Shown here one piece after another: positions 7,630-63,642 of a stretch of DNA of 64,000 bases. How positions within the stretch are numbered: position 1 is the stretch's first letter; each line of letters starts with the position of its first letter. The stretch is from Spirochaetota bacterium (GTDB taxonomy: Bacteria; Spirochaetota; UBA4802; JAFGDQ01). The notes beneath the pieces are model-generated. The model ran no database searches, was not told where the DNA came from, and worked only from the letters and a program-made list of their open reading frames with translations. The position numbers and the translations under genes were made by a program. The stretch covers positions 21,185 through 85,184 of the forward strand of contig JAZDKB010000053.1 of assembly GCA_043803405.1 (NCBI GenBank), in the 5' to 3' direction.

Positions 7630-7703
7630 TGGGCGATATTGGACTTGAACCAACGACCTTCTGCGTGTCGAGCAGACGCTCTAGCCAGCTGAGCTAATCG
7701 CCC
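7630..7703 (-). tRNA. tRNA-Val(GAC), CCA not encoded
   Basis: GGGCGATTAGCTCAGCTGGCTAGAGCGTCTGCTC-GAC-ACGCAGAAGGTCGTTGGTTCAAGTCCAATATCGCCCA folds as a full cloverleaf. Confidence 0.96.
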
Positions 7704-8795: not shown

Positions 8796-8935
8796 GTATT
8801 AGATTAAGTTGTTAAAATTTTTTATTATTATAAATGCGCGATATCGAGTCAGAAAAGTTATCATTATTTACAAAAGAACTGGCAATATACATGTCCTCTT
8901 CGAATTAGAGACTGTATGAAAAGTAAGGCTGTAAA

Positions 8936-9070
8936 GCTCCCGGCCCCCTAAATCCCCCTAGAGGGGGACTTAAAAGCGGAAAAAGCACAAGCCTTTCAAT
9001 TTAAAAAAATCATAAGTCCTCCTCTAGGGGGATGGCGGCGAAACAGCCTAGGGGGCTGCACTAGCAAAGG
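8936..9070. repeat. Family A inverted-repeat element, gene-less copy 1
   Basis: CGGCCCCCTAAATCCCCCTAGAGGGGGACTT at 8941-8971 and an inverted partner at 9014-9058 carrying a small hairpin insert; flanks GCTCCC and AGCAAAGGCA shared with the 14111 copy. Confidence 0.8.
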
Positions 9071-10330: not shown

Positions 10331-10370
10331 AAAAAAAATAACAAAGATAAAAATAAAATAAGAGGATGCG

Positions 10371-10589
10371 ATGGCAGATAAAGAAATTGAAAAAAAGGAT
10401 TTCGCAGGCAGGACGATTAAGATACTGGGCGAAACTTATGATGCAGGGTCTCCGGAATGTGTAGGCTGCGGAGAAGACCTTGGCTGGAGATCGCATTTTA
10501 AAACAAGAGAAGAGAAATTGAAATATTTAAAGAGTGCGGAAAGATACTGGTACAGCAGGGACTGGTTCGGCAGCGAGAAGCAAAGATAA
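10371..10589 (+). CDS. Small hypothetical protein (72 aa, CxxC) inside the acs cluster
   Basis: GAGGA RBS, ATG start, co-oriented with the cluster, ECVGC motif. Confidence 0.7.
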   Translation: MADKEIEKKDFAGRTIKILGETYDAGSPECVGCGEDLGWRSHFKTREEKLKYLKSAERYWYSRDWFGSEKQR

Positions 10590-10629
10590 AATGACTTTAA
10601 GGTTTTTGTAGAGTTATATTTTTTTTATT

Positions 10630-10734
10630 AGACTTGTTGCAAATCTAAAGTGTCATTTCGACCGAAGGGAGAAATCTATTAACAAAATGAAAGATTTCTC
10701 CCTTCGGTCGAAATGACACTTTTACAACAAGACT
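10630..10734. repeat. Family D REP/MITE-like palindrome, intact copy
   Basis: Perfect 31-bp arms AAAGTGTCATTTCGACCGAAGGGAGAAATCT at 10647-10677 and 10692-10722, inside outer arms AGACTTGTTGCAAA / TTTACAACAAGACT. Confidence 0.85.
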
Positions 10735-10744
10735 ATTCATTAAG

Positions 10745-10770
10745 CTCTGTGCCTCAGTGTCTCTGTGGCA
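10745..10770. repeat. Family C repeat, single arm
   Basis: CTCTGTGCCTCAGTGTCTCTGTGGCA, three 9-nt units, matching the arms at 11955 and 18913. Confidence 0.7.
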
Positions 10771-10817
10771 AATTTTTTTTTAGGAATATTATCATTCAAT
10801 GATATGGAGGACATGCA

Positions 10818-11776: not shown

Positions 11777-11981
11777 TGCCACAGACTCACAGAGACGCAG
11801 AGAAGTAAAATAGGTCTTATTTTAATTTTAAAATATTTACAAGTCATCTCGAAATTAACTTTAATATTTTTTAAATTGTAATGTATTACAATTTAAAGTC
11901 AGCTATTTATGTAAAATCATATTTTTGGGACGAGCTTTACTTATGTTTTTTTTATCTCTGTGTCTCCGTGACTCTGTGGCA
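11777..11981. repeat. Family C inverted pair with nested palindromes
   Basis: TGCCACAGACTCACAGAGACGCAGAGA (11777-11803) and inverted partner (11955-11981), 24/27 match; internal perfect TTTAAATTGTAAT-GT-ATTACAATTTAAA (11870-11897). Confidence 0.8.
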
Positions 11982-12078
11982 GATTCAGTAATAGCTTTTT
12001 AATAGTATATTCTAAGTTATTTCACTAAGTTATATAGTTTAAACATGATTTAAATCTGAATAAATTCAGGAAAACAAT

Positions 12079-14040: not shown

Positions 14041-14110
14041 GAGATAAGCTCTCTAACCCTAAAGGGGCATGGCTGTCTAATGCTGATTATTTTTGTTGTA
14101 AATCGGATAT

Positions 14111-14236
14111 GCTCCCAGCCCCCTAACCCCCTAAAGGGGGCAACGGCTTGGAAATTATTTCGGCGAATGTTACGTTTTTTTACAAGAATATGCCCCCTTT
14201 AGGGGGTTAGGGGGCCGAAGAAGCAAAGGCAATCAT
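14111..14236. repeat. Family A inverted-repeat element, gene-less copy 2
   Basis: CAGCCCCCTAACCCCCTAAAGGGGGCA (14116-14142) and TGCCCCCTTTAGGGGGTTAGGGGGCCG (14191-14217), 26/27 inverted match, 48-bp spacer. Confidence 0.88.
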
Positions 14237-14257: not shown

Positions 14258-14442
14258 AGGGGAAGCAATCCCCCAGTTAGGGGAAACAATCCCCCTGATG
14301 GGGAAAAGAACTTCCCTCCAGGGAAATTAAATATCCCAACTGGGGAATGGAATCTCCCTCGAGGGAAATAGAATTTCCCAGATGGGAAAGAAGATATCCC
14401 TTGTGGGAGGAATAATATCCCTGATGGGGGAAATAGTTTCCC
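14258..14442. repeat. Array of nine 21-bp-periodic degenerate palindromes (GGG-N11-CCC-N4)
   Basis: Units start at 14258, 14279, 14300, 14321, 14342, 14363, 14384, 14405 and 14426 with no indels. Confidence 0.88.
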
Positions 14443-14494
14443 TTTAGTACATTTAAGTATAACGATTATGTAATAATTTTCAGGAGGCAACGAG

Positions 14495-16699
14495 GTGTCC
14501 AAGATTATAGCTTCTGCGGGCATTAGAGGCGCTTACAGGATTGTCGAAAGGGCAGAAACAAAACTGAAAGAGTCGATCGATAAATGGGGTCCGAACAGGG
14601 AAGTCGCGTTCCCCAATACCGGATATTATCTTCCCATTATTTACGGAATACTCGGACATAGAGTAGAAAAACTGAAAGATATGGAATATGTTATTTCCGT
14701 GTGCCGGAATCTGCTGCCTCCGCCCGTAAGGGAGAAGCATCATCTTCCATACCTTGGCCCTGCTCTTGATGCCGGCATGGCTACTTTTTTTGCAGAAGAA
14801 ATAATTGAAGCAATAAAATATATTGAGAACCCGAACGTGTATGTAAAGGGCGAGGATATCACTGACAGCAACATCTGGCTGGGAGCCGCGGACGATGTTA
14901 TTTTAAGAAAGCGCGGTGTGGAATTCGTTGACGGCACAGCTCCCGGGTTCGCCGCGATCCTGGGCGCGCCCGAGGACCCGAAGGTCGCTGCAAAGATCGC
15001 GCTCGAGCTTCAGGAGAAGAATCTGTACGTGTTCATGTGCGCTCATACCGACGGGCGCAGCATGCCGGAGCAGCTTATAAGCGAAGGGGTGCAGGTAGGG
15101 TGGGGCACAAGACTTGTGCCCTTTGGCCCGGAGTCGTCCGCAGCAGTATTCGCGATCGGGTTCGCGACCAGGGCTGCAATGTCGTTCGGGGGCATTGAGC
15201 CCGGCGATTACCGCAAAATTCTCATCTATAACAAAGACCGCATCTTCGCGTTCGCAATGACCCTCGGTTACGTAAGCGACGACTGGTACGCGAACGGGCT
15301 GGGGTGCGTGAACTACGGCTTCCCGATCATAGCAGATACCCCGATTCCGGAAATTCTGCCTACCGGGATCTGCACCTACGAGCATGTGGTATCGAACATT
15401 CCGCACGGGAATATTGTTGCAAAGGCGATCGAGGTAAGGGGGCTCAAGGTAAATGTCACAAAGGTGCCTGTTCCTGTCGCGTACGGGCCTGCGTTCGAAG
15501 GGGAAAGGGTAAGGGGGGATGATATTTTTCTGGAAGCCGGCGGCGGCCGCACACATGCAGTTGAGCTTGTGGTATCCGCAGACATGAATGCAATTACGGA
15601 CGGAAAAATAGAAGTAGTAGGGCCGGATGTGAAAGATGTTGCTCCGGGAGCGACTCTCCCGCTCGCTGTATACATCCAGGTTGCAGGCAGGGAGATGCAG
15701 GAGGATTTTGAGCCTATACTCGAAAGGCAGATCCATCATCTTATTAATTACGCGCAGGGTATAATGCATATCGGCCAGAGGGACATTGCGTGGCTAAGGG
15801 TGTCCAGGCAGGCTGTAGACAAAGGATTTAAGCTCTCCAATATAGGCGATATCATGCATGCCAAATTCCACCAGGAATTCGGCAGCATACTGGATAAGGT
15901 ACAGGTAACCATATATACCGAAGAAAAAAAAGTAAGCGAGATACTTGAGCAGGCGAGGGCTGTGTACAAACAGCGCGATGACAGGATAGCCGGCATGACA
16001 GACGAGGACACGAATCCGTTTTATTCATGCACTCTTTGCCAGTCGTTCGCTCCGAATCATGTGTGCATCGTAACACCTGAGAGGACCGGCCTTTGCGGTG
16101 CTTATAACTGGCTGGACTGCAAGGCATCGAATGAGATGAACCCGACAGGCCCGAATCAGCCTGTGCCCAAAGACAAAGTGATTGACGCAAAATACGGGCA
16201 GTGGAAAGGCGTGGATGATTTTGTTGCAAAGGCATCAAGGGGAAATGTGCTGACAGTGGACGCGTACAGTATAATGAGGAACCCCATGACATCATGCGGG
16301 TGCTTTGAATGCATTGCGGCAATTCTTCCGCTGTGCAACGGCATAATGATAGTTGACAGGGATACATCCGTGATGACGCCCAGCGGAATGAAATTTACAA
16401 CGCTTGCAGGCATGGTGGGCGGCGGCAATGTGACCCCGGGATTCCTGGGACACAGCAAGTATTACATTACCAGCAAAAAATTTATTCTGGCAGAAGGCGG
16501 TATTAAAAGGATTGTGTGGATGCCGAAGTCGCTTAAGGAAGAGATAAAGGAACGCTTTAATGAAATGGCTTCCAGAACCGGATGCCCCGATCTTCTGGAC
16601 AGGATCGCAGATGAGACTGTCGGCGTTGCTGAAGAAGAAGTACTGACTTATCTTACAGAGAAACAGCATCCGGCGCTTACAATGGATCCGATGTTTTAA
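14495..16699 (+). CDS. acsB: Acetyl-CoA synthase, bacterial type with N-terminal domain
   Basis: FPNTGYYLP, FEPILERQIH, CTLCQSFAPNHVC, CGAYNWLDC, MTSCGCFEC; GTG start behind AGGAGG. Confidence 0.97.
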   Translation: MSKIIASAGIRGAYRIVERAETKLKESIDKWGPNREVAFPNTGYYLPIIYGILGHRVEKLKDMEYVISVCRNLLPPPVREKHHLPYLGPALDAGMATFFAEEIIEAIKYIENPNVYVKGEDITDSNIWLGAADDVILRKRGVEFVDGTAPGFAAILGAPEDPKVAAKIALELQEKNLYVFMCAHTDGRSMPEQLISEGVQVGWGTRLVPFGPESSAAVFAIGFATRAAMSFGGIEPGDYRKILIYNKDRIFAFAMTLGYVSDDWYANGLGCVNYGFPIIADTPIPEILPTGICTYEHVVSNIPHGNIVAKAIEVRGLKVNVTKVPVPVAYGPAFEGERVRGDDIFLEAGGGRTHAVELVVSADMNAITDGKIEVVGPDVKDVAPGATLPLAVYIQVAGREMQEDFEPILERQIHHLINYAQGIMHIGQRDIAWLRVSRQAVDKGFKLSNIGDIMHAKFHQEFGSILDKVQVTIYTEEKKVSEILEQARAVYKQRDDRIAGMTDEDTNPFYSCTLCQSFAPNHVCIVTPERTGLCGAYNWLDCKASNEMNPTGPNQPVPKDKVIDAKYGQWKGVDDFVAKASRGNVLTVDAYSIMRNPMTSCGCFECIAAILPLCNGIMIVDRDTSVMTPSGMKFTTLAGMVGGGNVTPGFLGHSKYYITSKKFILAEGGIKRIVWMPKSLKEEIKERFNEMASRTGCPDLLDRIADETVGVAEEEVLTYLTEKQHPALTMDPMF

Positions 16700-16751: not shown

Positions 16752-17297
16752 ATGATTATTTTTACTTCTTCAGCCCCCTAACCCCCAAAGGGGGCATAAT
16801 TGGGAAGGTCTGGATAGTAAGTCATTATTACCAGATGAAAGGAATGTTGCAAAACAATGAACAAAGGAGTAAAAACGCCTGATTATATAATACAGTTGGC
16901 CAGAGATATGAGAAATAATATGACCATTGCTGAAAAGAAGTTATGGTCGGCTATAAATAAGAAACAGATTGATGGCTTTAAATTTAGAAATCAGCATCCT
17001 GTAAATCGTTATATACTTGATTTTTATTGCGATAATAAACAACTCGCTATTGAGGTTGATGGGGATGTTCATATTAAAAAGCAGGAAGATGATAAATATA
17101 GAGACGAATTTTTAAATAGTCTGAGCATCAGAGTTTTACGTTTTAGCAATAATGATATTATGACTGATTTAGATACTGTTATAAATAAGATTAAAAAGGA
17201 ATTATCTGCTTAATAGAAAATATTATCTAATAATAGCAGGATTTCTATTGAATAATGTTTTTCAGAATGTGCCCCCTTTGGGGGTTAGGGGGCCGAA
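16752..17297. mobile_element. Putative mobile element: DUF559 gene bounded by family A inverted repeats
   Basis: TTCAGCCCCCTAACCCCCAAAGGGGGCATA (16769-16798) and TGTGCCCCCTTTGGGGGTTAGGGGGCCGAA (17268-17297), 28/30 inverted match, between acsB and acsC; mobility is inferred. Confidence 0.6.
16857..17213 (+). CDS. DUF559 / Vsr-like endonuclease-domain protein
   Basis: ARDMRNNMTIAEKKLW, KFRNQHPV..YILDFYC, LAIEVDGDVH, DKYRDEFL...IRVLRFSN. Confidence 0.92.
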   Translation: MNKGVKTPDYIIQLARDMRNNMTIAEKKLWSAINKKQIDGFKFRNQHPVNRYILDFYCDNKQLAIEVDGDVHIKKQEDDKYRDEFLNSLSIRVLRFSNNDIMTDLDTVINKIKKELSA

Positions 17298-17447
17298 AGG
17301 GCAATTGCGATGTTATGCAAGTATGTTTTTCCAAAAGCAAATAATAATAACAGATATTTAGCATGAGGCAGCCCTTGGGTGCAGGGTGGGAAGAAATATT
17401 AATAACGAAAATTCGAATTACTAAATTATACTTCAGGAGATTACATA

Positions 17448-18797
17448 ATGGCGCTATCCGGAATTGAGATTTATAAAATGCTTCCGCAGACTAACTGCAA
17501 AGACTGCGGCGTACCGACATGTCTTGCGTTTGCCATGAAGCTTGCTGCAGGCCAGGCAGAGCTCGATAAATGTCCTCATGTGTCAGCCGAATCCAGAGAA
17601 AAGCTTTCGAGTGCGTCAGCGCCCCCGGTTATTCCTGTGACAATAGGAGCAGGCGCGGATATTTTTAAAACAGGCGGCGAGACTGTGCTCTTTAGGCACG
17701 ACAAGACATTCGTTAATCCTACAGGCATTGCTGTTTTAGTATCAGATAAAATGAGCGATGCTGATGTTGACAGAAGGCTGAAGAATTTCAGAGAGCTGCA
17801 GTATGAGCGCGTGGGACTTCATCTGAAGGCCGATCTTATAGCAATAAAATCCGAAAGCGGCGATGCGTCCGTTTTTGAAAAACTTATCGGTAAAGTAAAA
17901 GCTTCCGTGAATGCCGGGCTGATACTGATGAGCGATAAGACCGATGTTCTGAGCGCGGGCGTTAAGGCATGTGCAGAAAGAAAACCGCTTCTGTACGCAG
18001 CGACAAAAGAAAACGCAGAGGCGGTCGGCAACCTGGCAAAGGAAAACAAATGCGCTGTTGCCGTAAAAGGCAGCAGCATTGATGAAGTAATTGAGCTGAC
18101 CACTAAACTTACAGGCATGGGCATTAAGGAAATCGTGATCGATTCCGGATCGCGTACATTAAGAAAAGCGTTCGAAGAACAGATCATTATAAGGCGCGCT
18201 GCAATAAAGAAAGCCTTTCGGTCGCTTGGTTTCCCGACAATCACTTTCCCGTGCGAGATGACAAATGATCCTATGGAAGAAACGTTGATTGCCTCGACCT
18301 TTATTGCCAAGTACAGCGGCATTGTTGTGCTGTCCGGTCTTGAGGGGCACAGCCTGTTCCCGCTTCTGGTGCAGAGAATGAATATATTTACTGATCCCCA
18401 GCGGCCAATGGCAACCGAACAGGGCATATATCCGTTTAACAATCCGGACGAAAATTCGCCTCTGCTCATTACTTCGAATTTTTCGTTAACATATTTTATA
18501 GTGTCAGGCGAAATTGAAGGGAGCAGGGTGCCTTCATGGCTTTTGATTCTGGATACTGACGGATTATCCGTGCTAACAGCATGGGCAGCAGGCAAATTCG
18601 TTCCGGATATAATTGGCGCGTTCGTTAAAAAAAGCGGAATAACGGATAAGATAAAACACAGGTCGCTTGTTATACCCGGTTTTGTCGCATCAATAAGCGG
18701 CGAACTGGAAGAGGAGCTTTCCGGCTGGAAGATCACGATAGGCCCAAGAGAGGCGCAGCATATTCCGAAATTCCTTAAAGAATACAGAGCCGGATAA
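17448..18797 (+). CDS. acsC: Corrinoid iron-sulfur protein large subunit (CODH/ACS gamma)
   Basis: LPQTNCKDCGVPTCLAFAM...CPH, GGETVLFRH, NIFTDPQRP, TNFSLTY-like motif, GLSVLTAWAAGKF. Confidence 0.96.
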   Translation: MALSGIEIYKMLPQTNCKDCGVPTCLAFAMKLAAGQAELDKCPHVSAESREKLSSASAPPVIPVTIGAGADIFKTGGETVLFRHDKTFVNPTGIAVLVSDKMSDADVDRRLKNFRELQYERVGLHLKADLIAIKSESGDASVFEKLIGKVKASVNAGLILMSDKTDVLSAGVKACAERKPLLYAATKENAEAVGNLAKENKCAVAVKGSSIDEVIELTTKLTGMGIKEIVIDSGSRTLRKAFEEQIIIRRAAIKKAFRSLGFPTITFPCEMTNDPMEETLIASTFIAKYSGIVVLSGLEGHSLFPLLVQRMNIFTDPQRPMATEQGIYPFNNPDENSPLLITSNFSLTYFIVSGEIEGSRVPSWLLILDTDGLSVLTAWAAGKFVPDIIGAFVKKSGITDKIKHRSLVIPGFVASISGELEEELSGWKITIGPREAQHIPKFLKEYRAG

Positions 18798-18842
18798 TGT
18801 ATGTAAATTTACTAGTATCCGGACTGGATAAATTCAAATTGA

Positions 18843-18941
18843 TTTTGCCACAGAGGCACGGAGTCACAGAGAAGACAAATTAATTATTTTTATAATAAAA
18901 ACAAAGAAAAAACTCAGTTTCTCAGTGCCTCCGTGGTAAAA
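18843..18941. repeat. Family C inverted pair
   Basis: TTTTGCCACAGAGGCACGGAGTCACAGAG ... CTCAGTTTCTCAGTGCCTCCGTGGTAAAA. Confidence 0.75.
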
Positions 18942-18989
18942 TTTTTTCTGGATTGTCTTTAAGCAGCATAAATCAAAAGGAATAGAATA

Positions 18990-27791: not shown

Positions 27792-27959
27792 AATGCCCTC
27801 ACCCCAGGATTGCCTCACGCTAAATGGATTACGCTTCAGTACCCTCACCCGCCTGGCGCTATCGCGCCAAGCACCCTCTCCCGCGAAGCGCGGGTGAGGG
27901 TTAAGTTCCTCCCTCGCCCGCGCTTCGCGGGAGAGGGAGGTTAGGAGGGTGAGGGCATT
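27792..27959. repeat. Family B (BoxC-like) composite palindrome
   Basis: AATGCCCTCACCC ... GGGTGAGGGCATT enclosing two inverted CCCTCTCCCGCG-hairpin units. Confidence 0.85.
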
Positions 27960-31836: not shown

Positions 31837-31931
31837 TTGCCTTGTGCTAAGCGGATTACGTTTCAGTGTCCTCACCCGCCTGGCGCTATCGCGCCATGCA
31901 CCCTCTCCCGCGAAACGCGGGCGAGGGTTAA
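31837..31931. repeat. Family B repeat, direct copy of 27810-27904
   Basis: 84/95 identical by manual alignment. Confidence 0.88.
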
Positions 31932-32080
31932 AAAATTTCTATATCAGTATCTATTTCTTTGGCGGTTTCATGTTCCTTAACTTAATATATTTCTGAGTTT
32001 GTCTTCCTCAGGTGTTGAGTCATGTCTAATATCTCTGAAAAATAATTTTTTCTATTGCATATAATATGTTTTTCCTGGTT

Positions 32081-32155
32081 CCCCTCTCCCTGACTGCCGA
32101 CCCCCTGTTACGAATAATACTAAATTCAGGGAGAGGGGTTAGGGATGAGGGCATT
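32081..32155. repeat. Family B (BoxC-like) repeat
   Basis: CCCCTCTCCCTGA ... TCAGGGAGAGGGGTTAGGGATGAGGGCATT. Confidence 0.75.
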
Positions 32156-32202
32156 TAAAGTCAGCCCTTGAGTTAGGGTGATGAGGTCATCATGCCGAAC
32201 AG

Positions 32203-41824: not shown

Positions 41825-43009
41825 ATGAATACAGAAGACTTAATACGGATTGCGAATGCAAAACTACTCAAGGTCACAAACCGGCCGGACATTGTGATGG
41901 CAAAAGGCAGAGGCCTGTACCTGTACGATGTTGAAGGCAACAAATACCTGGATTTTGTGGCTGGCTGGGGCGTGAACGCGCTTGGGCATTCTCCTAAAGC
42001 CGTTGCAAAAGCGCTCGCGAAGCAGGCAAAGACGCTGGCGAACGCGAGCCCCGCTTACTTCAACGTGCCGATGATTGAGTTTGCGGAAATGCTCACTGGA
42101 GCCTCGTGCTTTCAGAGGGCGTTCTTCTGCTCAACAGGCGCGGAAGCGAACGAAGGCGCAATCAAGCTCGCGCGCAAGTACGGCTCAGTTCACAAAAAAG
42201 GAGCAAGCGATATAATAACAACAATCGGGAGCTTTCACGGACGCACGCTGACTACCATGGCTGCTTCGGGGAAAGCTGCGTTTGAAAAGCTGTTCGAGCC
42301 GAAGACAAAAGGATTCGTTAAAGTCAAATTCAATGATTTGAACGCTGTCAAAAAAGCGATCACAAAAAATACCTGCGCTGTAATGCTGGAGCCTATCCAG
42401 GGTGAAGGCGGAGTAAATGCTGCAAATAAAGATTATGTCCTGGGATTGCGTGAACTTTGCGATAAAAACAATATGCTTTTAGTTTTCGACGAAGTGCAGA
42501 CAGGCATGGGCAGGACAGGAAAAATGTTCTGCTATGAACACTTCGGGATAGAGCCGGACATTATAACTCTGGCAAAGGGGATCGGCGCTGGGTTCCCGCT
42601 TGCGGCCATGCTCGCTAAGGAAAAACTCAATATATTTGCTCCAGGAGAGCAAGGAGGAACATATACGCATCAGCCCCTGGCTATGGCAGTAGGCATTGCC
42701 GTGCTGAAAGAGTTTAAAGAAAAAGACGTTGTCGGTAACTGCGCGAAAATGGGAGCGCTCATCGTATCAAGGCTGCAGGCGCTGTCAAATGAATACGAGA
42801 TCGAAAACATAAGAGGCATGGGGCTTCTGCTTGGGTTTAATCTGCAGAAAAGCAATGCTGCCGATTTCGTGAATAAATGCTTAAAGGACGGCCTGCTCAT
42901 CAATTCTCCGCAGGAAAAAGCGATACGGCTAATGCCTCCGCTTATTATAAAAGAAAAAGAGATCAACGAACTGTTTGCTATATTAACGAAAAATCTTGCG
43001 AAAAAATAA
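41825..43009 (+). CDS. argD: Acetylornithine aminotransferase (class III)
   Basis: GAEANEGAIKLAR, SFHGRT, EPIQGEGG, DEVQTGMGRTG, AKGIG; start placed at ATG 41825 behind GAGG. Confidence 0.88.
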   Translation: MNTEDLIRIANAKLLKVTNRPDIVMAKGRGLYLYDVEGNKYLDFVAGWGVNALGHSPKAVAKALAKQAKTLANASPAYFNVPMIEFAEMLTGASCFQRAFFCSTGAEANEGAIKLARKYGSVHKKGASDIITTIGSFHGRTLTTMAASGKAAFEKLFEPKTKGFVKVKFNDLNAVKKAITKNTCAVMLEPIQGEGGVNAANKDYVLGLRELCDKNNMLLVFDEVQTGMGRTGKMFCYEHFGIEPDIITLAKGIGAGFPLAAMLAKEKLNIFAPGEQGGTYTHQPLAMAVGIAVLKEFKEKDVVGNCAKMGALIVSRLQALSNEYEIENIRGMGLLLGFNLQKSNAADFVNKCLKDGLLINSPQEKAIRLMPPLIIKEKEINELFAILTKNLAKK

Positions 43010-43013
43010 AGCA

Positions 43014-46000
43014 ATGAAAGACAGGCTATTTAAAATTCTTTTTTGCCTGCTCAGCGTTCTTGTTTTTTCTGTTTTCGCGGATATTGCAGAAGCGGACGAC
43101 TGGTCAGACCTTGACGAAGGCGAGCACGAAATTTACGGAAGCGAGAAAGATGAAAAATATCCGGTAAACATGCTTTTTTTAGAAAAAGAAAAATGGTCTA
43201 ACCATTATTCTTTCATGGCATTATGGCTTTACAAATATACCGACTATCCTAAATACGCATCAACCAGGTTCCTGCCGTTTTATTATAATATTGAAAGCAA
43301 AATTGATAACCGTAAAAAAAGAATTGTACCGTTTTTCTGGTATAACCGCGTTGAAGGCAACTCCGACCTTCTGGTTACGCCTATTTTTTATTCAAACAGA
43401 AACTCCGGCGATTCCGACATATCATGGCTGTATCTGTTCTGGTGGGGCAAAAGCGGAACTGATTACAAAACCTCATATAATTTTTTTATTCCATTACTGT
43501 TCTATAATAGCGACGGCCGAACCAAAGACGGCAGTGACACGGACTCTTTATTGATCAACCCGTTGTTCGTTTCAAAATATAATACAGGCAATAACAGTGC
43601 GTACAAACACAGAACCAATTTTTCATTGCTGCATTATTATGAATCGGACACATGGCCGGATAAAAATGAGACAACCTGGTGGGCGCCTATTATACCGGTA
43701 ACTTATCACCACACCTCTGCCGACGGAGGGCACAGGAATGTTTTATTTCTATTGGATTATTCATGGAAAACAGATGGTCCGGTAGATAAATGGGAACGTT
43801 TCTGGCTTGCGCCGTTCTGGTTCTGGGAAGGCGGGGATAACGGGTATAATAATATTCTGCCTCCAATCTACATTGATTCAAGAAATGCGAACGGAGAATC
43901 CTATTGGCACATCCTTCCTTTCTTTATTTATAAGAAAGATATTAGTCATAATTACACTACATTTAATAAAACAATAATTACTTTGTTTTCTTATCATTCA
44001 AAGGAATTCAAGGGAGATAAAAAGTGGGACGGCGATTTAACGCGGCAAACCGAATGGTACCCAATAATCCCGCTTTATTTCGCGCACACAGATTCCGGGC
44101 GCGGCACACACAGGAACTTTCTGTGGCTGTTCGACTGGCACAGTAGTAAGGAAAACGGCATTGACAGGTTCTGGTTTATCCCAGTCTGGCTCAAAGGAAA
44201 AAACTACAGGCATTTCCTGCTTCCGCTATACATGAACTTTAAACAGGATAACGATGGATATTATACACACTTTCTTCCTTTACTGATATTCAACTGGCGT
44301 TCTTTTGAAAAAAATTATTCAAATTCAGATAAAAATTATGAAAGTAAGGTTTACAAAGAAACAAGGCTTTCGTTTATATACTCATCTACAGGCAAATATG
44401 CTGTCAATGGGGAGACGGAAAGTGAATTATACAAATCATTCTGGCTGCCTATAATCCCGCTGTTTTACAGATCAACCCACAAAGAAGAAGGCTCACACAC
44501 AAATCTTTTTTGGCTAATAGACTGGGCTAGCAATAAAGAAGGAAACACGGAGCGGTTCTGGTTTATCCCATTCGCATTTCATCAGCCGGGAGATTCCGGT
44601 TACAGATTTTATTTTCCTTTTTACTTCAGGCCGTCCGGCAACACCGAAAAGAGCGGGCTCTCGTTCGGGCTGTTCCATTACCACTCATGGTCACCCGAAA
44701 AAAGAATTATGTGGCTGGGCCCGTGCTTTGCCCAGTATTATCCTGAGAAGAAAGAGCATTTCGGCATGCTTCTGCCTGTTTATGCTGCGTGGAAAACGCA
44801 AAAGAGCGAAGGAGAAATTCTGCTTCCGTGGTCAATTACTTACAGGGATAATAAAAGATCTTTATACGTAAATATTTTCGGCATATCAAAAAGCGCTGTG
44901 CTTGGGCCGCTCAATCCCGAAGTGTCGCTCGGAGCAGGGACATACAACGGCAGGTGGTACTTTGACACGGATGTATCGTGGCTTTATAATGTGTTCAGCG
45001 TATCAACCCGCATAAGCGTTAAGAATCCGTGGAGCGGCGGGGAAAGCGTTCCTGATATAAAAAGCCCTGAAGAAGGAAGCGACATCCGGGAAATATTCGC
45101 GGATGAATTTAATGCAGGACCGTCACTGAAAAAAGACAGAGAGCTTTCAAGGGACACCTCGGAATTCTTCTGGGGATACAAATTACTCTTCGGGTGGTTC
45201 GCGTACGAGCATGGCGACACGAAGAGGCACATAAGGCTTATTCCGCTCGGATGGTTCACGTGGGATAAAAAATCGGATGATAAGCTTTACACAATTCCGT
45301 TTGCTTTTCTTTCGTACAAATCGCAGGATATCGAGTACTTTGTACTCTATCCTTTATTCATTCCGATTTACGGGTATCAGAGAGATAGGGAATCGTATGC
45401 CAGGGGCTTTTTTATAAATGCTTATTGGGATGAATATAATGCTGACGAAAAACTGCGTGAGCAGACAATATTGTGGCCTCTAATAAACTGGTACAGATCG
45501 CCAAGAAAACACGGATGGAGAATCTTCCCTGTTATATGGCACAAGGAAGCCAGTAAGGACGATTCTCAGATAAGCAAATATATAATTCCGCCGCTGTTGT
45601 TTTATTCGAATTATGAAACAGACAGGAATAATAATCTTAAAAACAAAAGCGTAATTAATCCGCTGTATTATTCCAGAAAAACAACAAGCGCGTCGGAAAC
45701 AAGCGAAACAACAACAATTCCGATCATCCCGCTCATTTATTATTATTCCAGCAATACAACCATATATTCATTCGGCAGTAATACAGGCGCTTCGGATTCA
45801 GCAACAGGAGCAAAAATTAAAACCATTACCCGCACAATGAATCATTTTCTTCCTCTGCTTTATTTTTCCTGGGACACGATAACCATTTGGGAAAACAACA
45901 GGGAAGAAAAGGAATCCAATACTTTTTGTCTTGGTTACTACCGGAGCGCGAATCAAAAAGAAGAGAAATCCAGCGTGCTGTTCGGGCTATTCAGCCGGAA

Positions 46001-47513
46001 AAAGAATATTGCGGATGATTCGTCTAAAACCGGACTTCTTTACGGTCTTTTCAGATACTCTTCAGGTAAAGAATCGCAGTTTTATTTTATCCCGTTCTGG
46101 TATTATAATTCTTATAATAATATTATTAATAATCAGCAAAAGAGAAGTTTTATAAGTCCGGTTTATTATTCCAGAAAAACAACAAGCGCGTCGGAAACAA
46201 GCGAAACAACAATGCTCCCGATCATTCCGCTAATTTATTATTCTTCCAGCGATAAAACAATATATTCATTCGGAAGGGATACAAACACTGCAGATTCAAT
46301 ATCGGGAGCAAAGGTTAAATCGATTACACATTCGACCAGGCATATACTTCCTCTGCTTTATTTTTCATGGGACAAGACAACTGTTCTGGAAAATAATAAA
46401 GAAGAAAACGAATCCAGCAATTTTCTGCTTGGATTTTACTGGGGTTCAAATCAAAGAGAAACGAAAAAGAGCCTGCTGTTTGGATTGTTCAGCTGGAAAA
46501 ATAATCTTACTGATGACTCGAGCAAAACCGGACTTCTTTACGGCCTTTTCAGATATGCGTCAGGTAAAGAATCGCAGTTTTACTTTATCCCGTTCTGGTA
46601 TTATTATTCTTCACAATCCGAATGGCACTTTAATCTTTTGCTATTTGCGGATTATAAATCGGAAGAAAATTATAAACGGTTTTTTCTTTTCCCGTTCTGG
46701 TACACAAGCACTGAAAACGGAAACTCGCACAGTAACATTCTCGGCCTTATAGACTGGAAGCGCGGCCATGACAGCAAGCTCACGAGATCATGGTTCCTGC
46801 CTTTTTATTTATGGTACCCCGGAGAAGAAAGCGATCTATTTATTTTCCCATTGCTAACATATTATGGGAGTTCGCCTAAAGAGACTACTAAGTTTATCTT
46901 AGGTTATTATTCTTATAGCTCGGATTCCTATGAGCGGCAGAATTTCCTGTATCTCTTTGACCGCAGGAAATATCATGAGGATCACAAAGAATACAATTAT
47001 TTATTCGGCACTATACATTATGAGACAACGCAGTATAAAACAGAATGGAAGCTTGCTTTCGGAATATTAATGGATTACGAAGGATATAAAAATTCTGAAA
47101 ACTATAAATTCGATTTTCTGCTTTTTATAAGCAACTGGGAAAGGAACGGAGACTACTATCAGTCCAGCATATTGCCTTTGTGGTACTACAAAGAAAACAA
47201 AAATGACTGGTCGTTCCTTACTCCTGTGGGATTATCGTACTTCAGCAAAGACAGAAACGGCGACCTAGACCTTGGGCTTCTGGGCTTGCTTTACTTCAGG
47301 AACAACGACATACCAGAGAAGAGCGACACGCGCGCAGTGCTCGGCGGCGCTCTTTACTGGGAAAGAGAAAAACCGGAAAGAGGCTATCACTCATTCGGGA
47401 GCCTGTGGGGCGTCCTGTGGGATTATGAAACCGAAAGTGAGACCGGATTTAAAAAGTTAAGCATATTAAAAATTCCGGTATACAAGTCAAAAGGATCCGG
47501 CGAAGAGAAATAA
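43014..47513 (+). CDS. Very large aromatic-rich exported repeat protein with an internal duplication
   Basis: Signal peptide; many F/W-x-P-F/L-Y/W units; duplication 45657-46106 / 46155-46604. Confidence 0.8.
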   Translation: MKDRLFKILFCLLSVLVFSVFADIAEADDWSDLDEGEHEIYGSEKDEKYPVNMLFLEKEKWSNHYSFMALWLYKYTDYPKYASTRFLPFYYNIESKIDNRKKRIVPFFWYNRVEGNSDLLVTPIFYSNRNSGDSDISWLYLFWWGKSGTDYKTSYNFFIPLLFYNSDGRTKDGSDTDSLLINPLFVSKYNTGNNSAYKHRTNFSLLHYYESDTWPDKNETTWWAPIIPVTYHHTSADGGHRNVLFLLDYSWKTDGPVDKWERFWLAPFWFWEGGDNGYNNILPPIYIDSRNANGESYWHILPFFIYKKDISHNYTTFNKTIITLFSYHSKEFKGDKKWDGDLTRQTEWYPIIPLYFAHTDSGRGTHRNFLWLFDWHSSKENGIDRFWFIPVWLKGKNYRHFLLPLYMNFKQDNDGYYTHFLPLLIFNWRSFEKNYSNSDKNYESKVYKETRLSFIYSSTGKYAVNGETESELYKSFWLPIIPLFYRSTHKEEGSHTNLFWLIDWASNKEGNTERFWFIPFAFHQPGDSGYRFYFPFYFRPSGNTEKSGLSFGLFHYHSWSPEKRIMWLGPCFAQYYPEKKEHFGMLLPVYAAWKTQKSEGEILLPWSITYRDNKRSLYVNIFGISKSAVLGPLNPEVSLGAGTYNGRWYFDTDVSWLYNVFSVSTRISVKNPWSGGESVPDIKSPEEGSDIREIFADEFNAGPSLKKDRELSRDTSEFFWGYKLLFGWFAYEHGDTKRHIRLIPLGWFTWDKKSDDKLYTIPFAFLSYKSQDIEYFVLYPLFIPIYGYQRDRESYARGFFINAYWDEYNADEKLREQTILWPLINWYRSPRKHGWRIFPVIWHKEASKDDSQISKYIIPPLLFYSNYETDRNNNLKNKSVINPLYYSRKTTSASETSETTTIPIIPLIYYYSSNTTIYSFGSNTGASDSATGAKIKTITRTMNHFLPLLYFSWDTITIWENNREEKESNTFCLGYYRSANQKEEKSSVLFGLFSRKKNIADDSSKTGLLYGLFRYSSGKESQFYFIPFWYYNSYNNIINNQQKRSFISPVYYSRKTTSASETSETTMLPIIPLIYYSSSDKTIYSFGRDTNTADSISGAKVKSITHSTRHILPLLYFSWDKTTVLENNKEENESSNFLLGFYWGSNQRETKKSLLFGLFSWKNNLTDDSSKTGLLYGLFRYASGKESQFYFIPFWYYYSSQSEWHFNLLLFADYKSEENYKRFFLFPFWYTSTENGNSHSNILGLIDWKRGHDSKLTRSWFLPFYLWYPGEESDLFIFPLLTYYGSSPKETTKFILGYYSYSSDSYERQNFLYLFDRRKYHEDHKEYNYLFGTIHYETTQYKTEWKLAFGILMDYEGYKNSENYKFDFLLFISNWERNGDYYQSSILPLWYYKENKNDWSFLTPVGLSYFSKDRNGDLDLGLLGLLYFRNNDIPEKSDTRAVLGGALYWEREKPERGYHSFGSLWGVLWDYETESETGFKKLSILKIPVYKSKGSGEEK

Positions 47514-56166: not shown

Positions 56167-56352
56167 TACCCTCATCCCCCTTCTCTCAGATAGCTGCTAT
56201 GATTTTGTATAAATTAAATAGAGAATTTAATATTATTGAAAAGTTTTGCTGATAGTTCAAGGGAGAAGGGGAACTTTCCCCTCTCCCCGAGTTATATTTA
56301 AGTTTTCTGTAAAGATATTGTTCGGGGAGAGGGGAGTAAGGGGTGAGGGCAT
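56167..56352. repeat. Family B (BoxC-like) inverted pair with AT-rich loops
   Basis: CCCTCATCCCCCTTCTCTC...GGGAGAAGGGG then CCCCTCTCCCCGA...TCGGGGAGAGGGGAGTAAGGGGTGAGGGCAT. Confidence 0.75.
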
Positions 56353-56387
56353 CTGACGTTTCCCACGCCAGATTTATTATATTTAAT

Positions 56388-61767: not shown

Positions 61768-63642
61768 ATGTCAAAAAGAATATTATATATTATAATAATT
61801 CCATTAGCGCTTATTCTTTTGCCGAAAGTATCATGCCAGAAAAAAGACACGGAAGTTCAGGACAAATCCGCAAAGGTCGACTCTATTCCGGCAAAAAAAA
61901 CCAATATTGTAAAAGATAAAGGATGCATTGAGGGAAACTGTATTGATGGCCGCGGAACTTATGTTTATGAAGACGGCAGCACATATACCGGCAATTTTAA
62001 GGATGGGAAAAGACATGGTAAAGGGAAAATGAAATGGGCATCCGGTTCCAGAAAAGGTGAAGAGTATGAAGGTGACTGGTTTAATGACAATATGGACGGA
62101 CTTGGCGTTTATACTTATACAGACGGAAGTAAATATACGGGTTCATTTAAAGACGGCAAGAGGCACGGCAAAGGCGTTATGGCATGGGAGTCCGGGCCGC
62201 GTAAAGGTGAAAAATACGAAGGCGAATGGTTTAATGATAAAATAGAAGGTAAAGGCGTTTACACATATGCCGACGGCAGCAAATATGAAGGCGAATTTAA
62301 AGATGGCAAAAGAAACGGCAAAGGCAAAATGATATGGGCGTTCGGGCCGCGCAAAGGTGAGATCTACGAAGGCGAATGGAAAGACGACAAAATGAACGGT
62401 AAGGGCACATATATCTATGCCGATGGCAGCAAATATGAAGGCGAGTTCAAAGACGATAAAAAAGACGGCAAAGGTAAAATGACATGGGAATCCGGGCTGC
62501 GCAAAGGTGAGACCTACGAAGGCGAATGGAAAGATGACAAAATTGAAGGTAAAGGCGTTTACACTTATGCCGACGGCAGCAAATACGAAGGTGAGTTTAA
62601 AGACGGCAAGAAAGACGGGAAGGGGACAATGACATGGGCGTCCGGGCCGCGTAAGGGTGATAAATATACCGGCGAATGGAAAGATGACAAGATTGAAGGC
62701 AAAGGCGTTTACACTTATGCCGATGGCAGTAAATATGAAGGCGAATTCAAAGACGGCAAGAAAGACGGGAAGGGGACAATGACATGGGCGTCGGGGCCGC
62801 GTAAAGGTGAAAAATATGAAGGCGAGTGGAAAGACGATAAGATTGAAGGCAAAGGCGTTTATACTTATGCCGATGGCAGCAAATACGAGGGCGAATTCAA
62901 AGACGGCAGAAAGCACGGGAAAGGGACAATGACCTGGGCGTCCGGCCTGCGCAAAGGTGACAAATATACGGGTGAGTGGGCGGATGATGAAATGCATGGC
63001 CTGGGAAAATATTCATATGCTGACGGAAGGTTATATGAAGGCAGGTTCGAGAAAGGGAAAAAGCACGGATATGGAGTAATGACCTGGACGAGCGGGCCTA
63101 AAAAGGGCGAAAAATATGCGGGTGACTGGAAAGATGATAAAATGGACGGTCTTGGAGTATATACATATCCTAACGGTAAAAAACAAACCGGGCAATGGAA
63201 AAACGGGAAATGGTACGGGATTGTTAAAGCAACTGCCGAAAAAAGCAAGCCGGCAGTTATTAAACCGAATAGCGATAAAACAGCTGTTAAAAAGCCTGTG
63301 CCTGTAGCTCCTAAAGAAAAGAAGAAGGAAATTGAGAATACAACTAAATCAGATGATTTACCGGATATTTTAAAAGCCGAATATATCTATATACAAAAAG
63401 ACTGGCAGAACTGGCATTTGCTTGAAGGCGGACTTGAAAAATATATAAAAGATAAAATTTTGCAAATTGAATATATTGACGGAAATATTACAAAAGGGAA
63501 ATTGATAAATATTGCCAACGAAAGGGAAATAGGCTATAATCGCTGGAAAACCTATTGGAATGTTGAAACCCTGGACACCGGAAAAACAAAAGTGCCTGAG
63601 ATGTCAATATGGAGAATAAAAATATTGAAGGAAACGAGATAA
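61768..63642 (+). CDS. MORN-repeat exported protein
   Basis: GCIEGNCIDG cap, then about 8.5 tandem 50-aa units of YEGEWKDDKIEGKGVYTYADG type. Confidence 0.92.
   Translation: MSKRILYIIIIPLALILLPKVSCQKKDTEVQDKSAKVDSIPAKKTNIVKDKGCIEGNCIDGRGTYVYEDGSTYTGNFKDGKRHGKGKMKWASGSRKGEEYEGDWFNDNMDGLGVYTYTDGSKYTGSFKDGKRHGKGVMAWESGPRKGEKYEGEWFNDKIEGKGVYTYADGSKYEGEFKDGKRNGKGKMIWAFGPRKGEIYEGEWKDDKMNGKGTYIYADGSKYEGEFKDDKKDGKGKMTWESGLRKGETYEGEWKDDKIEGKGVYTYADGSKYEGEFKDGKKDGKGTMTWASGPRKGDKYTGEWKDDKIEGKGVYTYADGSKYEGEFKDGKKDGKGTMTWASGPRKGEKYEGEWKDDKIEGKGVYTYADGSKYEGEFKDGRKHGKGTMTWASGLRKGDKYTGEWADDEMHGLGKYSYADGRLYEGRFEKGKKHGYGVMTWTSGPKKGEKYAGDWKDDKMDGLGVYTYPNGKKQTGQWKNGKWYGIVKATAEKSKPAVIKPNSDKTAVKKPVPVAPKEKKKEIENTTKSDDLPDILKAEYIYIQKDWQNWHLLEGGLEKYIKDKILQIEYIDGNITKGKLINIANEREIGYNRWKTYWNVETLDTGKTKVPEMSIWRIKILKETR

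Follow-up and report, generated by a model that had tools for sequence, protein, structure and literature searches.

A DUF559 nuclease gene inside triplex-type inverted repeats of a Spirochaetota bacterium: a candidate mobile cassette comparable to REPIN/RAYT and Ssn/SRM systems

In a Spirochaetota bacterium (GenBank assembly GCA_043803405.1) a small stand-alone gene with a DUF559 nuclease domain lies between acsB and acsC and is enclosed by two inverted repeats, hereafter called arms, which raises the question of what such a gene does inside repeats that recur elsewhere in the genome. The locus belongs to a stretch of 64,000 nucleotides (the window) on contig JAZDKB010000053.1 (C53) of a draft genome that has 3.98 Mb and is 94% complete. 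Its closest protein matches are in Spirochaetota metagenome-assembled genomes, which points to an uncultured spirochaete. A search of sequencing runs listed one DNA run, in which its share is small, and no RNA run. A preliminary description had proposed that the nuclease recognises and propagates its own flanking repeat. Our analysis indicates that the gene and its inverted arms probably constitute a mobile cassette, in which the nuclease would nick the folded arm and host repair would copy or swap units between unrelated sites. The cassette is likely best read as a counterpart of the REPIN/RAYT or Ssn/SRM systems that uses another enzyme. This reading is based on the anatomy of the unit, its association with the gene across phyla, the match of arm type to protein clade, deletion derivatives of the gene, sharp arm ends and the absence of target duplications.

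The open reading frame (ORF) at 16857-17213 encodes 118 amino acids and matches DUF559 (PF04480) at 123.1 bits (E 5.8e-36; cut-off 20.6 bits) over profile positions 4-108 of 109, so that the gene is what the preliminary description had taken it for. Its neighbours are members of the Wood-Ljungdahl cluster, acsB having a CdhC/ACS_CODH_B domain and acsC having CdhD/FeS domains. The structure model (predicted local distance difference test score 88.7) is a single 118-residue domain that matches the uncharacterised 3HRL (Z 16.1, root-mean-square deviation 0.7 over 91 residues), the catalytic domain of the homing endonuclease I-Bth0305I (Z 11.9, 2.6 over 92) and Vsr (Z 9.9, 2.0 over 96), and a profile comparison with 3R3P gave E 1.4e-6. 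R19, E26, W30, Q46, D55, D68, H72, D79 and R95 are invariant across 41 homologues. In a set of 145 proteins, for which the search pattern itself partly imposes E66, D68 and H72, E26 is retained in 143, D55 in 144 and D79 in 143. The roles of the E, D, D, H and D residues have been mapped to the Vsr active site (PMC12907096; also PMC3239194), and their spacing is nearly that of Caulobacter VsrA (PMC12907096). The ratio of nonsynonymous to synonymous substitution rates (dN/dS) was computed for 14 of 17 pairs and is 0.06-0.28 in the 11 of these with finite dS, indicating purifying selection. Because of its Vsr-like fold and conserved residues, the protein is most likely an active nuclease, one that the model predicts to have no separate DNA-binding domain.

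The same fold raises the alternative that DUF559 serves the host in very-short-patch repair by nicking T:G mismatches, with the arms as regulatory or incidental hairpins. Caulobacter VsrA has DUF559 with the same residue pattern (E73, D102, D115, H119, D124), and a cytosine-methyltransferase mutant depends on it for its SOS response (PMC12907096). Additionally, the E. coli DUF559 gene ycjD is retained in 3346 of 5426 genomes (at least 80% query cover). However, the genome under study has four DUF559 genes and yet no hit to the cytosine methyltransferase family PF00145, and a crude methyltransferase motif was found near 1 of 162 loci. Scans for promoters and terminators around the cassette stayed at chance level with no terminator-like site. 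Neighbouring genes vary, copies decay between arms and deletion derivatives multiply, as described below, and nuclease specificity lay outside the VsrA study (PMC12907096). Canonical Vsr is linked to a cytosine-C5 methyltransferase, whereas none is adjacent to the window gene; unlinked Vsr-methyltransferase pairs have been proposed for Caulobacter (PMC12907096). We therefore consider a repair role quite unlikely. EDxHD homing endonucleases such as I-Bth0305I (PMC3239194) are, like Vsr, similar in catalytic fold and residue pattern, but the window protein has no N-terminal NUMOD or helix-turn-helix domain, is associated with no intron or intein, and belongs to a family that occupies many loci bounded by repeats. 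An Rfam scan of the window found a tRNA alone and no intron.

Each arm reads C5-TAA-C5-AAA-G5 on one strand and C5-TTT-G5-TTA-G5 on the other, and the cassette measures about 520 bp from arm to arm. The 28 matches in 30 positions that had been claimed between 16769-16798 and the reverse complement of 17268-17297 were reproduced. Each arm had also been described as a hairpin preceded by a second C-run; that layout is present, but in the DNA fold of minimum energy it is the first C-run, not the second, that pairs with the G-run, so that either C-run is able to pair. The whole cassette folds to a long stem (z -5.9, DNA parameters). Five exact matches to the arm pattern occur in the window (8943, 14118, 14193, 16773, 17272) against 0.00 expected from 100 shuffles. 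Genome-wide, a regular expression identifies 64 short-stem arms, 52 of which are arranged as 26 inverted pairs, with a DUF559 gene inside two of these, while a broader detector finds 144 arms compared with 12 in the shuffled genome. Gene-less copies are thus numerous, as anticipated, and they sort into interior classes of about 51, 52, 54, 100 and 142 bp. The earlier failure to discern a target-site duplication extends to all 26 pairs of this genome and to 14 pairs of a congener, none of which has a duplication or a shared offset at the arm ends. A family-wide flank of TTGCTTCTTCGG type is carried by 14 arms. Of 31 genomes, 4 have the exact arm sub-type; the congener G001 lacks it.

Within this genome the repeat is tied to DUF559, in agreement with the preliminary description, in that arms of this family bracket none of its Y1, GIY-YIG, PDDEXK_3, IS1182 or IS256 genes; one arm does lie within 350 bp of the IS256 gene, on one side, inside a separate miniature inverted-repeat transposable element (MITE). 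The DUF559 paralogue at C10:140450 is bracketed by its own six-C arm sub-type, and the remaining two DUF559 genes have long-stem arms nearby. On the same contig as the paralogue a lone arm (C10:137987-138009) lies inside an ORF next to a gene of RHS type, the reading frame continuing through it.

Judged by its layout, the arm repeat is not new but a short-stem relative of known BoxC/PIT/TM motifs. The BoxC/PIT/TMECO elements (Holder et al. 2015, PMC4666352) likewise have a Y-run, loop, R-run, TTA loop and R-run, are intergenic and sometimes occur as tandem inverted pairs. The TMECO consensus has 9-bp stems, with 0 matches in the window or genome, and the ITxF triplex definition calls for stems of 6-15 nt, whereas the arms here are pure C/G with stems of 5 bp, or 6 bp in sub-types; the layout and the TTA loop do match. 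Local instability of unexplained cause has been reported at TMECO sites (PMC4666352). The accessible text of that article names no enzyme, with 0 occurrences each of ycjD and nuclease.

The association of DUF559 with such arms extends well beyond this genome. In a metagenomic set composed of the best 80 of 567 confirmed hits (69 of the 80 loci stand-alone), a structure-based detector with a 350-bp range, designed after the first loci had been seen, placed an arm near 48 of the 51 stand-alone homologues with both flanks available, on both sides in 27 and inverted inward in 22. Arms were likewise found near 33 of 45 homologues of the bacterium's own phylum and near 9 of 9 in the genome_contigs set. 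Distal control windows of these loci had an arm in 0 of 31, 0 of 34 and 1 of 8 cases, respectively, so the enrichment beside DUF559 genes for which the preliminary description had proposed a test is supported. Distant viral relatives were positive in 1 of 14, 0 of 46 and 0 of 6 cases. As background, 136 of 3333 called ORFs of this genome (4%) have an arm on any side and 7 (0.2%) have arms on both. Seven of eight named replicons, from Cyanobacteriota, Deinococcota and the Alpha-, Beta- and Gammaproteobacteria (three phyla), were also positive.

For example, ycjD in E. coli has a BoxC pair, on one side only. At the fabI-sapF site ycjD and its BoxC pair alternate with the eefRABCD efflux operon, and the two versions cease to be similar about 40 bp ahead of the BoxC arm; E. 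coli Nissle has the eef operon at the ycjD site and no BoxC match. This alternation has been reported (PMC12817139), and the passages of that report on ycjD are silent on the repeat.

Arm type follows the protein tree, with 31 label changes compared with 55.8 after shuffling, on a FastTree phylogeny of 145 rows and few columns from which 17 loci had been dropped as partial or broken; this is the co-variation for which the preliminary description had proposed to look. The window protein falls in a 20-row clade with support 100, 19 rows of which have short-stem arms. Inward arms on both sides are found in 16 of the 20 members, with neighbours as varied as alr/clpA, cas1, hsdM/hsdR, engA and radical SAM genes. 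Across clades the stems range from 4 to about 12 bp. At some loci DUF559 copies decay in place between their arms.

Several gene-less units are derived from the gene-bearing one. The 142-bp class comprises seven copies, two with a decayed arm, which are colinear with the window cassette along 16771-16922 (arm, leader and first 22 codons) and all jump from one shared breakpoint to 17254, most of them running on to about 17376. Their mutual identity is 82-97%, compared with 68-72% to the gene-bearing interior. Given the shared breakpoint and this mutual identity, one deletion followed by amplification would explain all seven copies. In contrast, the 14.1-kb copy, which had been interpreted as an inverted, internally deleted version of the cassette, is not such a version. 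Both its outer flank and its inner ends indicate the same polarity, and no homology with the cassette interior could be detected in its 52-bp interior (local score 18, shuffle mean 17.8). In the 51-, 52-, 54- and 100-bp classes homology to the cassette interior is limited to the bases next to the arm. The matches beyond the core repeats quoted in support of that version are real (16752-16774 against the reverse complement of 14214-14236, 18/23; 17354-17373 against that of 14071-14090, 16/20), but they derive from family-wide flanks and from the terminal repeat of a separate MITE. The gene-less pairs noted at 14.1 and 8.9 kb are both present, the latter with a degenerate right partner (about 9014-9056) that is broken by about 15 nt and with a longer first loop as its sub-type.

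This MITE forms an outer layer. A repeat of 17-19 bp starting with CAGGG flanks the pair on the outside, at a distance of about 49 bp from one arm and about 81 bp from the other, and is found near 25 of the 64 arms; both outer ends accompany 5 of the 26 arm pairs, one end accompanies 11 and none accompanies 10. Units with both outer ends have 7-10-bp direct repeats in 8 of 15 cases compared with 2 of 210 mismatched flank pairs, in a test for which the ends were fixed after inspection and 2 of 17 candidate pairs were dropped as spurious. By these sequence features the CAGGG-ended outer element is a DDE-type MITE. Of 61 genomes, 5 have it, and these belong to one family; a relative, G004, has a complete unit of outer end, arm, DUF559, arm and outer end, and another, G006, has a bare 39-bp outer element. 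The window cassette retains the right outer end only. One backbone encloses 52-, 54-, 100- and 142-bp interiors, the gene and, once, the 51-bp class, and since it holds at least five different interiors, this suggests that interiors were exchanged at the arms. In five of seven comparisons the derivatives resemble the outer flank of the cassette more closely than they do its interior (p<0.05); the seven share one reference and are not independent. The 100-bp class occurs in the congener G002 without the backbone (4 of 5 tested copies beat all shuffles). Thus, a DDE transposase probably spread some arm pairs in this bacterial family, the MITE backbone of the window cassette included.

As to which transposase, the outer ends begin like the E. 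coli H-repeat at yhhI, an element that we take to be ISAs1. CAGGG ends with an 8-10-bp duplication are presumably the ISAs1 signature, checked on the yhhI element only. An ISAs1 transposase was not found in 7 genomes nor in 122 genomes of the order, all draft assemblies. The IS1182 and IS256 elements of this genome were rejected as partners as their ends differ, IS1182 having only about 10 terminal bases in common with the outer repeat. Loci of IS1182 relatives had no outer-type ends, PF01609, PF00872 and PF13546 loci in five genomes had no matching ends, and viral and plasmid scans were blank or at chance level. A composite element spanning acsB between 14068 and 17376 was also rejected; no duplication is common to its two flanks, and G002 has acsB in synteny (judged by eye).

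Other insertion sequences (IS) also meet the arms. At C44:27042-28755, inside an outer-repeat MITE, an intact IS1182-family element stands in place of the hairpin of a long-stem arm, a replacement of an inverted repeat by insertion that has been described for IS1272 (PMC5678879). Three other IS-like ends adjoin arms in 10/10, 4/4 and 4/19 copies, one of them at window position 8908-8923, which suggests from sequence that arms are repeated insertion targets. The window also has long-stem BoxC-like elements at 27805-27950, 31837-32160 and 56329-56359, the first of which begins with an outer MITE end and is inserted into a C-run arm.

This outer layer opens the alternative that arms and gene are cargo and hot spots, with DDE transposases and MITEs (IS1182-like, ISAs1-like or other) moving arm pairs and inserting into them while DUF559 rides along from one ancient association. 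The direct repeats of doubly-ended units, the complete G004 unit, the replaced hairpin on C44 and the IS-like ends adjoining arms in 10/10 and 4/4 copies are all in its favor, and it is real for part of the spread in this family. However, the outer repeat is confined to one family, whereas the cassette spans many phyla, and is present in only 2 of the 20 clade members. Moreover, G002 has 191 arm matches but 1 outer-repeat match, and no transposase with outer ends was found in the searches described above. Cargo status also leaves unexplained the purifying selection on an arm-enclosed, clade-matched nuclease. As an account of the cassette we regard it as unlikely.

Relatives allow the acs locus itself to be compared. 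All eight relatives with adjacent acsB and acsC have no DUF559 gene in the spacer (85-390 bp), which holds a gene-less pair in G002, a long-stem pair in G021 and no pair in the other six. G002 has arms at five junctions of its acs operon, and its cooC-folD spacer, where the 8.9-kb pair is located here, has 65 bp and no repeat. Pairs in G002 have sharp limits that coincide with the arm and often with a stop codon, and a loose match to the outer end was seen for 4 of the 40 arms examined there. Among 251 genomes from the phylum, a DUF559 homologue is present in 18 of the 22 with at least 10 arm matches compared with 25 of the other 229.

Placement within operons bears on a further alternative, an RNA-level system in which the protein would bind or cut the folded arms of a transcript and so affect operon mRNA processing, with spread that is RNA-linked or purely host-driven. 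Co-oriented genes flank 21 of the 24 pairs with scored neighbours compared with 1013 of 1596 background spacers, many G002 arms begin at a stop codon, RAP-domain RNA-binding proteins occur among the structural matches (Z 8-9), and the long stem of the whole unit is consistent with such a role. Placement after a stop codon is, however, equally expected from selection, and among structural matches whose activity is known or presumed the top three are DNA nucleases. According to Holder et al. (PMC4666352), RNA cannot adopt purine-motif triplexes, and PIT elements were without promoter or terminator activity. The neighbour genes scanned include no reverse transcriptase. An RNA-level system is in our estimate very improbable.

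We favor instead a mobile cassette acting at the DNA level. The DUF559 nuclease would recognise the single-stranded arm in its folded form and nick it; recognition of a folded strand is proposed because what is conserved is the fold, a hairpin with a third C-run, rather than a single duplex sequence. Gap repair or recombination by the host would then copy, delete or swap sequence between arms, with or without the gene, and host functions would be required since the Vsr-like fold predicts hydrolytic cutting without rejoining. Movement by a nick plus host recombination is proposed by analogy with Ssn/SRM and RAYT/REPIN. A second layer, particular to this family, would be the carriage of some arm pairs, the window cassette included, inside the DDE-type MITE. 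DUF559 genes are enriched among predicted inversion targets, with an odds ratio of 14.3 in a published table (PMC9881135), and this enrichment fits recombination at inverted arms.

Among known systems the cassette would appear to work most like Ssn with its NTS/SRM repeats (Chenal et al. 2025, PMC11893778), which likewise has a small single-domain nuclease gene inside dispersed hairpin inverted repeats, a repeat variant of its own for each homologue and no transposase. Ssn cuts single-stranded DNA at its own flanking repeats (PMC11893778). The two differ in that Ssn is a GIY-YIG enzyme (cd10448), whereas the window enzyme is a Vsr/EDxHD-like PD-(D/E)XK protein without a GIY-YIG Pfam hit, and in that the SRM is a simple hairpin to which the DUF559 arm adds a third C-run of triplex type. 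Repeats flank 71% of Ssn homologues on any side and 42% on both (PMC11893778), compared with 48/51 and 27/51 for DUF559. The main text of that article has 0 occurrences of DUF559 or Vsr. Taken by these comparisons, the cassette is neither a RAYT nor an Ssn system, neither an EDxHD homing endonuclease nor a canonical Vsr.

RAYTs are HUH tyrosine transposases that cut and rejoin DNA, a chemistry that is not predicted for DUF559, and in place of the HUH Y1 enzyme of RAYT systems this unit has DUF559, while both Y1 hits of the genome lack an arm of this family within 350 bp. REPIN/RAYT systems (Bertels and Rainey 2011, PMC3116915) do resemble the present one in having dispersed intergenic inverted doublets with fixed spacer classes, repeats clustered beside one enzyme gene, and several repeat types with several enzymes per genome. 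The doublet arrangement is found here in the 52 paired arms with their set spacers. A difference from REPINs is that some of the doublets in this genome descend by deletion from the enzyme gene. DDE MITEs with ISAs1/H-repeat-type ends or IS1182-type hairpin targeting resemble the outer layer only, in its CAGGG ends and 7-10-bp duplications; they duplicate their target, whereas the core arm-to-arm unit does not.

A number of observations weigh against a nuclease-driven cassette. At least one outer MITE end accompanies 16 of the 26 pairs in this genome, and a transposase can account for much of the spread here, several of the seven derivatives included. One of the seven flank-versus-interior comparisons goes the opposite way and another is not significant. 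The survey is affected by the late design of its detector and the selection of its best hits, and no arm was detected at 19 of 145 full-length homologues. The match between arm and clade can be expected without any specificity, because arms and gene are physically linked. The genome tallies in the phylum are confounded by kinship, and G229, G249 and G203 (92-99% complete) have 38-232 arm matches and no PF04480 hit. G008 is arm-rich but its sole DUF559 copy, between arms, is interrupted by a stop, while G004 has an intact cassette yet only 2 arm matches, those flanking the cassette. The empty-site comparison that had been proposed is partly borne out by the eight relatives without the gene at acsB-acsC, but an exact pair of empty and filled sites was not found, the relatives being too diverged. 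Lastly, the phenotype of Caulobacter VsrA, a DUF559 protein, was read as mismatch repair (PMC12907096).

A broader proposal is that DUF559 proteins in general are structure-specific triplex/hairpin nucleases driving autonomous elements of about 500 bp without a transposase, recombinase, intron or target duplication, that BoxC/PIT/TM repeats are their non-autonomous copies, and that YcjD causes BoxC instability in E. coli. We put this forward tentatively, as a possibility that falls short of probable. Coordinates of the features in the window are collected in Table 1.

Table 1. Features of the DUF559 cassette and of its surroundings in the window
Feature	Position	Strand	Remarks
Left arm	16769..16798 (core 16773-16796)	+	C-run, TAA, C-run, AAA, G-run; short-stem triplex-type
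Leader and first 22 codons	16796..16922	+	Retained, decayed (68-72% identical), in seven gene-less derivatives, which then jump to 17254
DUF559 gene, 118 amino acids	16857..17213	+	Vsr/EDxHD-like nuclease fold; predicted active site E26, D55, D68, H72, D79; Pfam, structure model, invariant columns
Right arm	17268..17297	-	Inverted copy of left arm, 28/30
'81-type' outer flank of MITE backbone	17298..17357	.	Common to many gene-less pairs
Outer terminal inverted repeat	17358..17376	-	CAGGG-type end; left partner missing from window unit
Outer terminal repeat (14068-14086) and '49-type' flank	14068..14117	+	Same MITE backbone; abuts older decayed arm (~14048-14069)
Gene-less arm pair, cooS-acsB spacer	14118..14215	+	52-bp interior class (4 genome copies); polarity of gene-bearing unit
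Gene-less pair, cooC-folD spacer	8943..9056	+	TAAAT-loop sub-type; right arm degenerate
acsB	14495..16699	+	Upstream neighbour, outside element; Pfam
acsC	17448..18797	+	Downstream neighbour, outside element; Pfam

The surroundings of the cassette have several further repeats. A second repeat family of CACAGAG type (10740-10774, 11777-11810, 11948-11987 and 18840-18942 in the window) forms inverted pairs at three junctions of the acs operon, has 84 genome copies and adjoins none of the tested DUF559, PDDEXK_3, GIY-YIG or transposase genes. A third family, at 10647-10722, is a perfect 31-bp inverted repeat with 13 genome copies that resembles the GTC-tagged SRM/REP type, and the only small GIY-YIG gene found in the genome is not flanked by it. 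Both PDDEXK_3 (GxxExxY-type) genes (C18:47272-47610 and C19:62322-62618) are bracketed by private repeats with TCTGAACC...GATT arms in direct and inverted copies. Right after the 14.1-kb pair, at 14259-14460, are about ten head-to-tail 21-bp palindromic units (GGGAA...TCCC type) that are absent from the cooS-acsB spacer of G002. An ORF of about 70 amino acids with a CxxC motif (about 10349-10590, between folD and acsD) probably encodes a real small protein of the acs operon, since it has 80% DNA identity in G002. Intragenic repeats occur at 61942-63141 (150-bp period; ORF 61768-63642) and at 45596-46393 (300-bp duplication; ORF 42996-47513), and the tRNA gene lies at 7630-7703 on the minus strand.

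BoxC/triplex repeats have been known since the 1990s, while DUF559 is a very common family for which we know of no tested substrate. On our analysis a DUF559 enzyme is likely the long-missing partner that spreads BoxC/triplex-type repeats. Both the design (RAYT/REPIN, Ssn/SRM) and the class of repeat were already known; the pairing of DUF559 with the repeat is not described in the literature searched. In the openly searchable literature, which leaves subscription journals outside its scope, we found no link of DUF559 or ycjD to BoxC/triplex repeats, although the supplements of Holder et al., with their lists of flanking genes, may name ycjD. The pairing makes the questions of the BoxC enzyme and the DUF559 substrate directly testable in E. 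coli K-12, with its ycjD and 23 TMECO sites, and it offers an alternative reading of the Caulobacter VsrA phenotype. The window locus itself provides fossil evidence in the form of deletion derivatives with a shared breakpoint, interior exchange at arms and a cassette captured by an unrelated MITE. If the proposal is true, it could supply a 118-residue nuclease specific for a non-B DNA structure, and DUF559 would be the third unrelated nuclease fold, after HUH (RAYT) and GIY-YIG (Ssn), to have become a small enzyme inside its own hairpin repeats.

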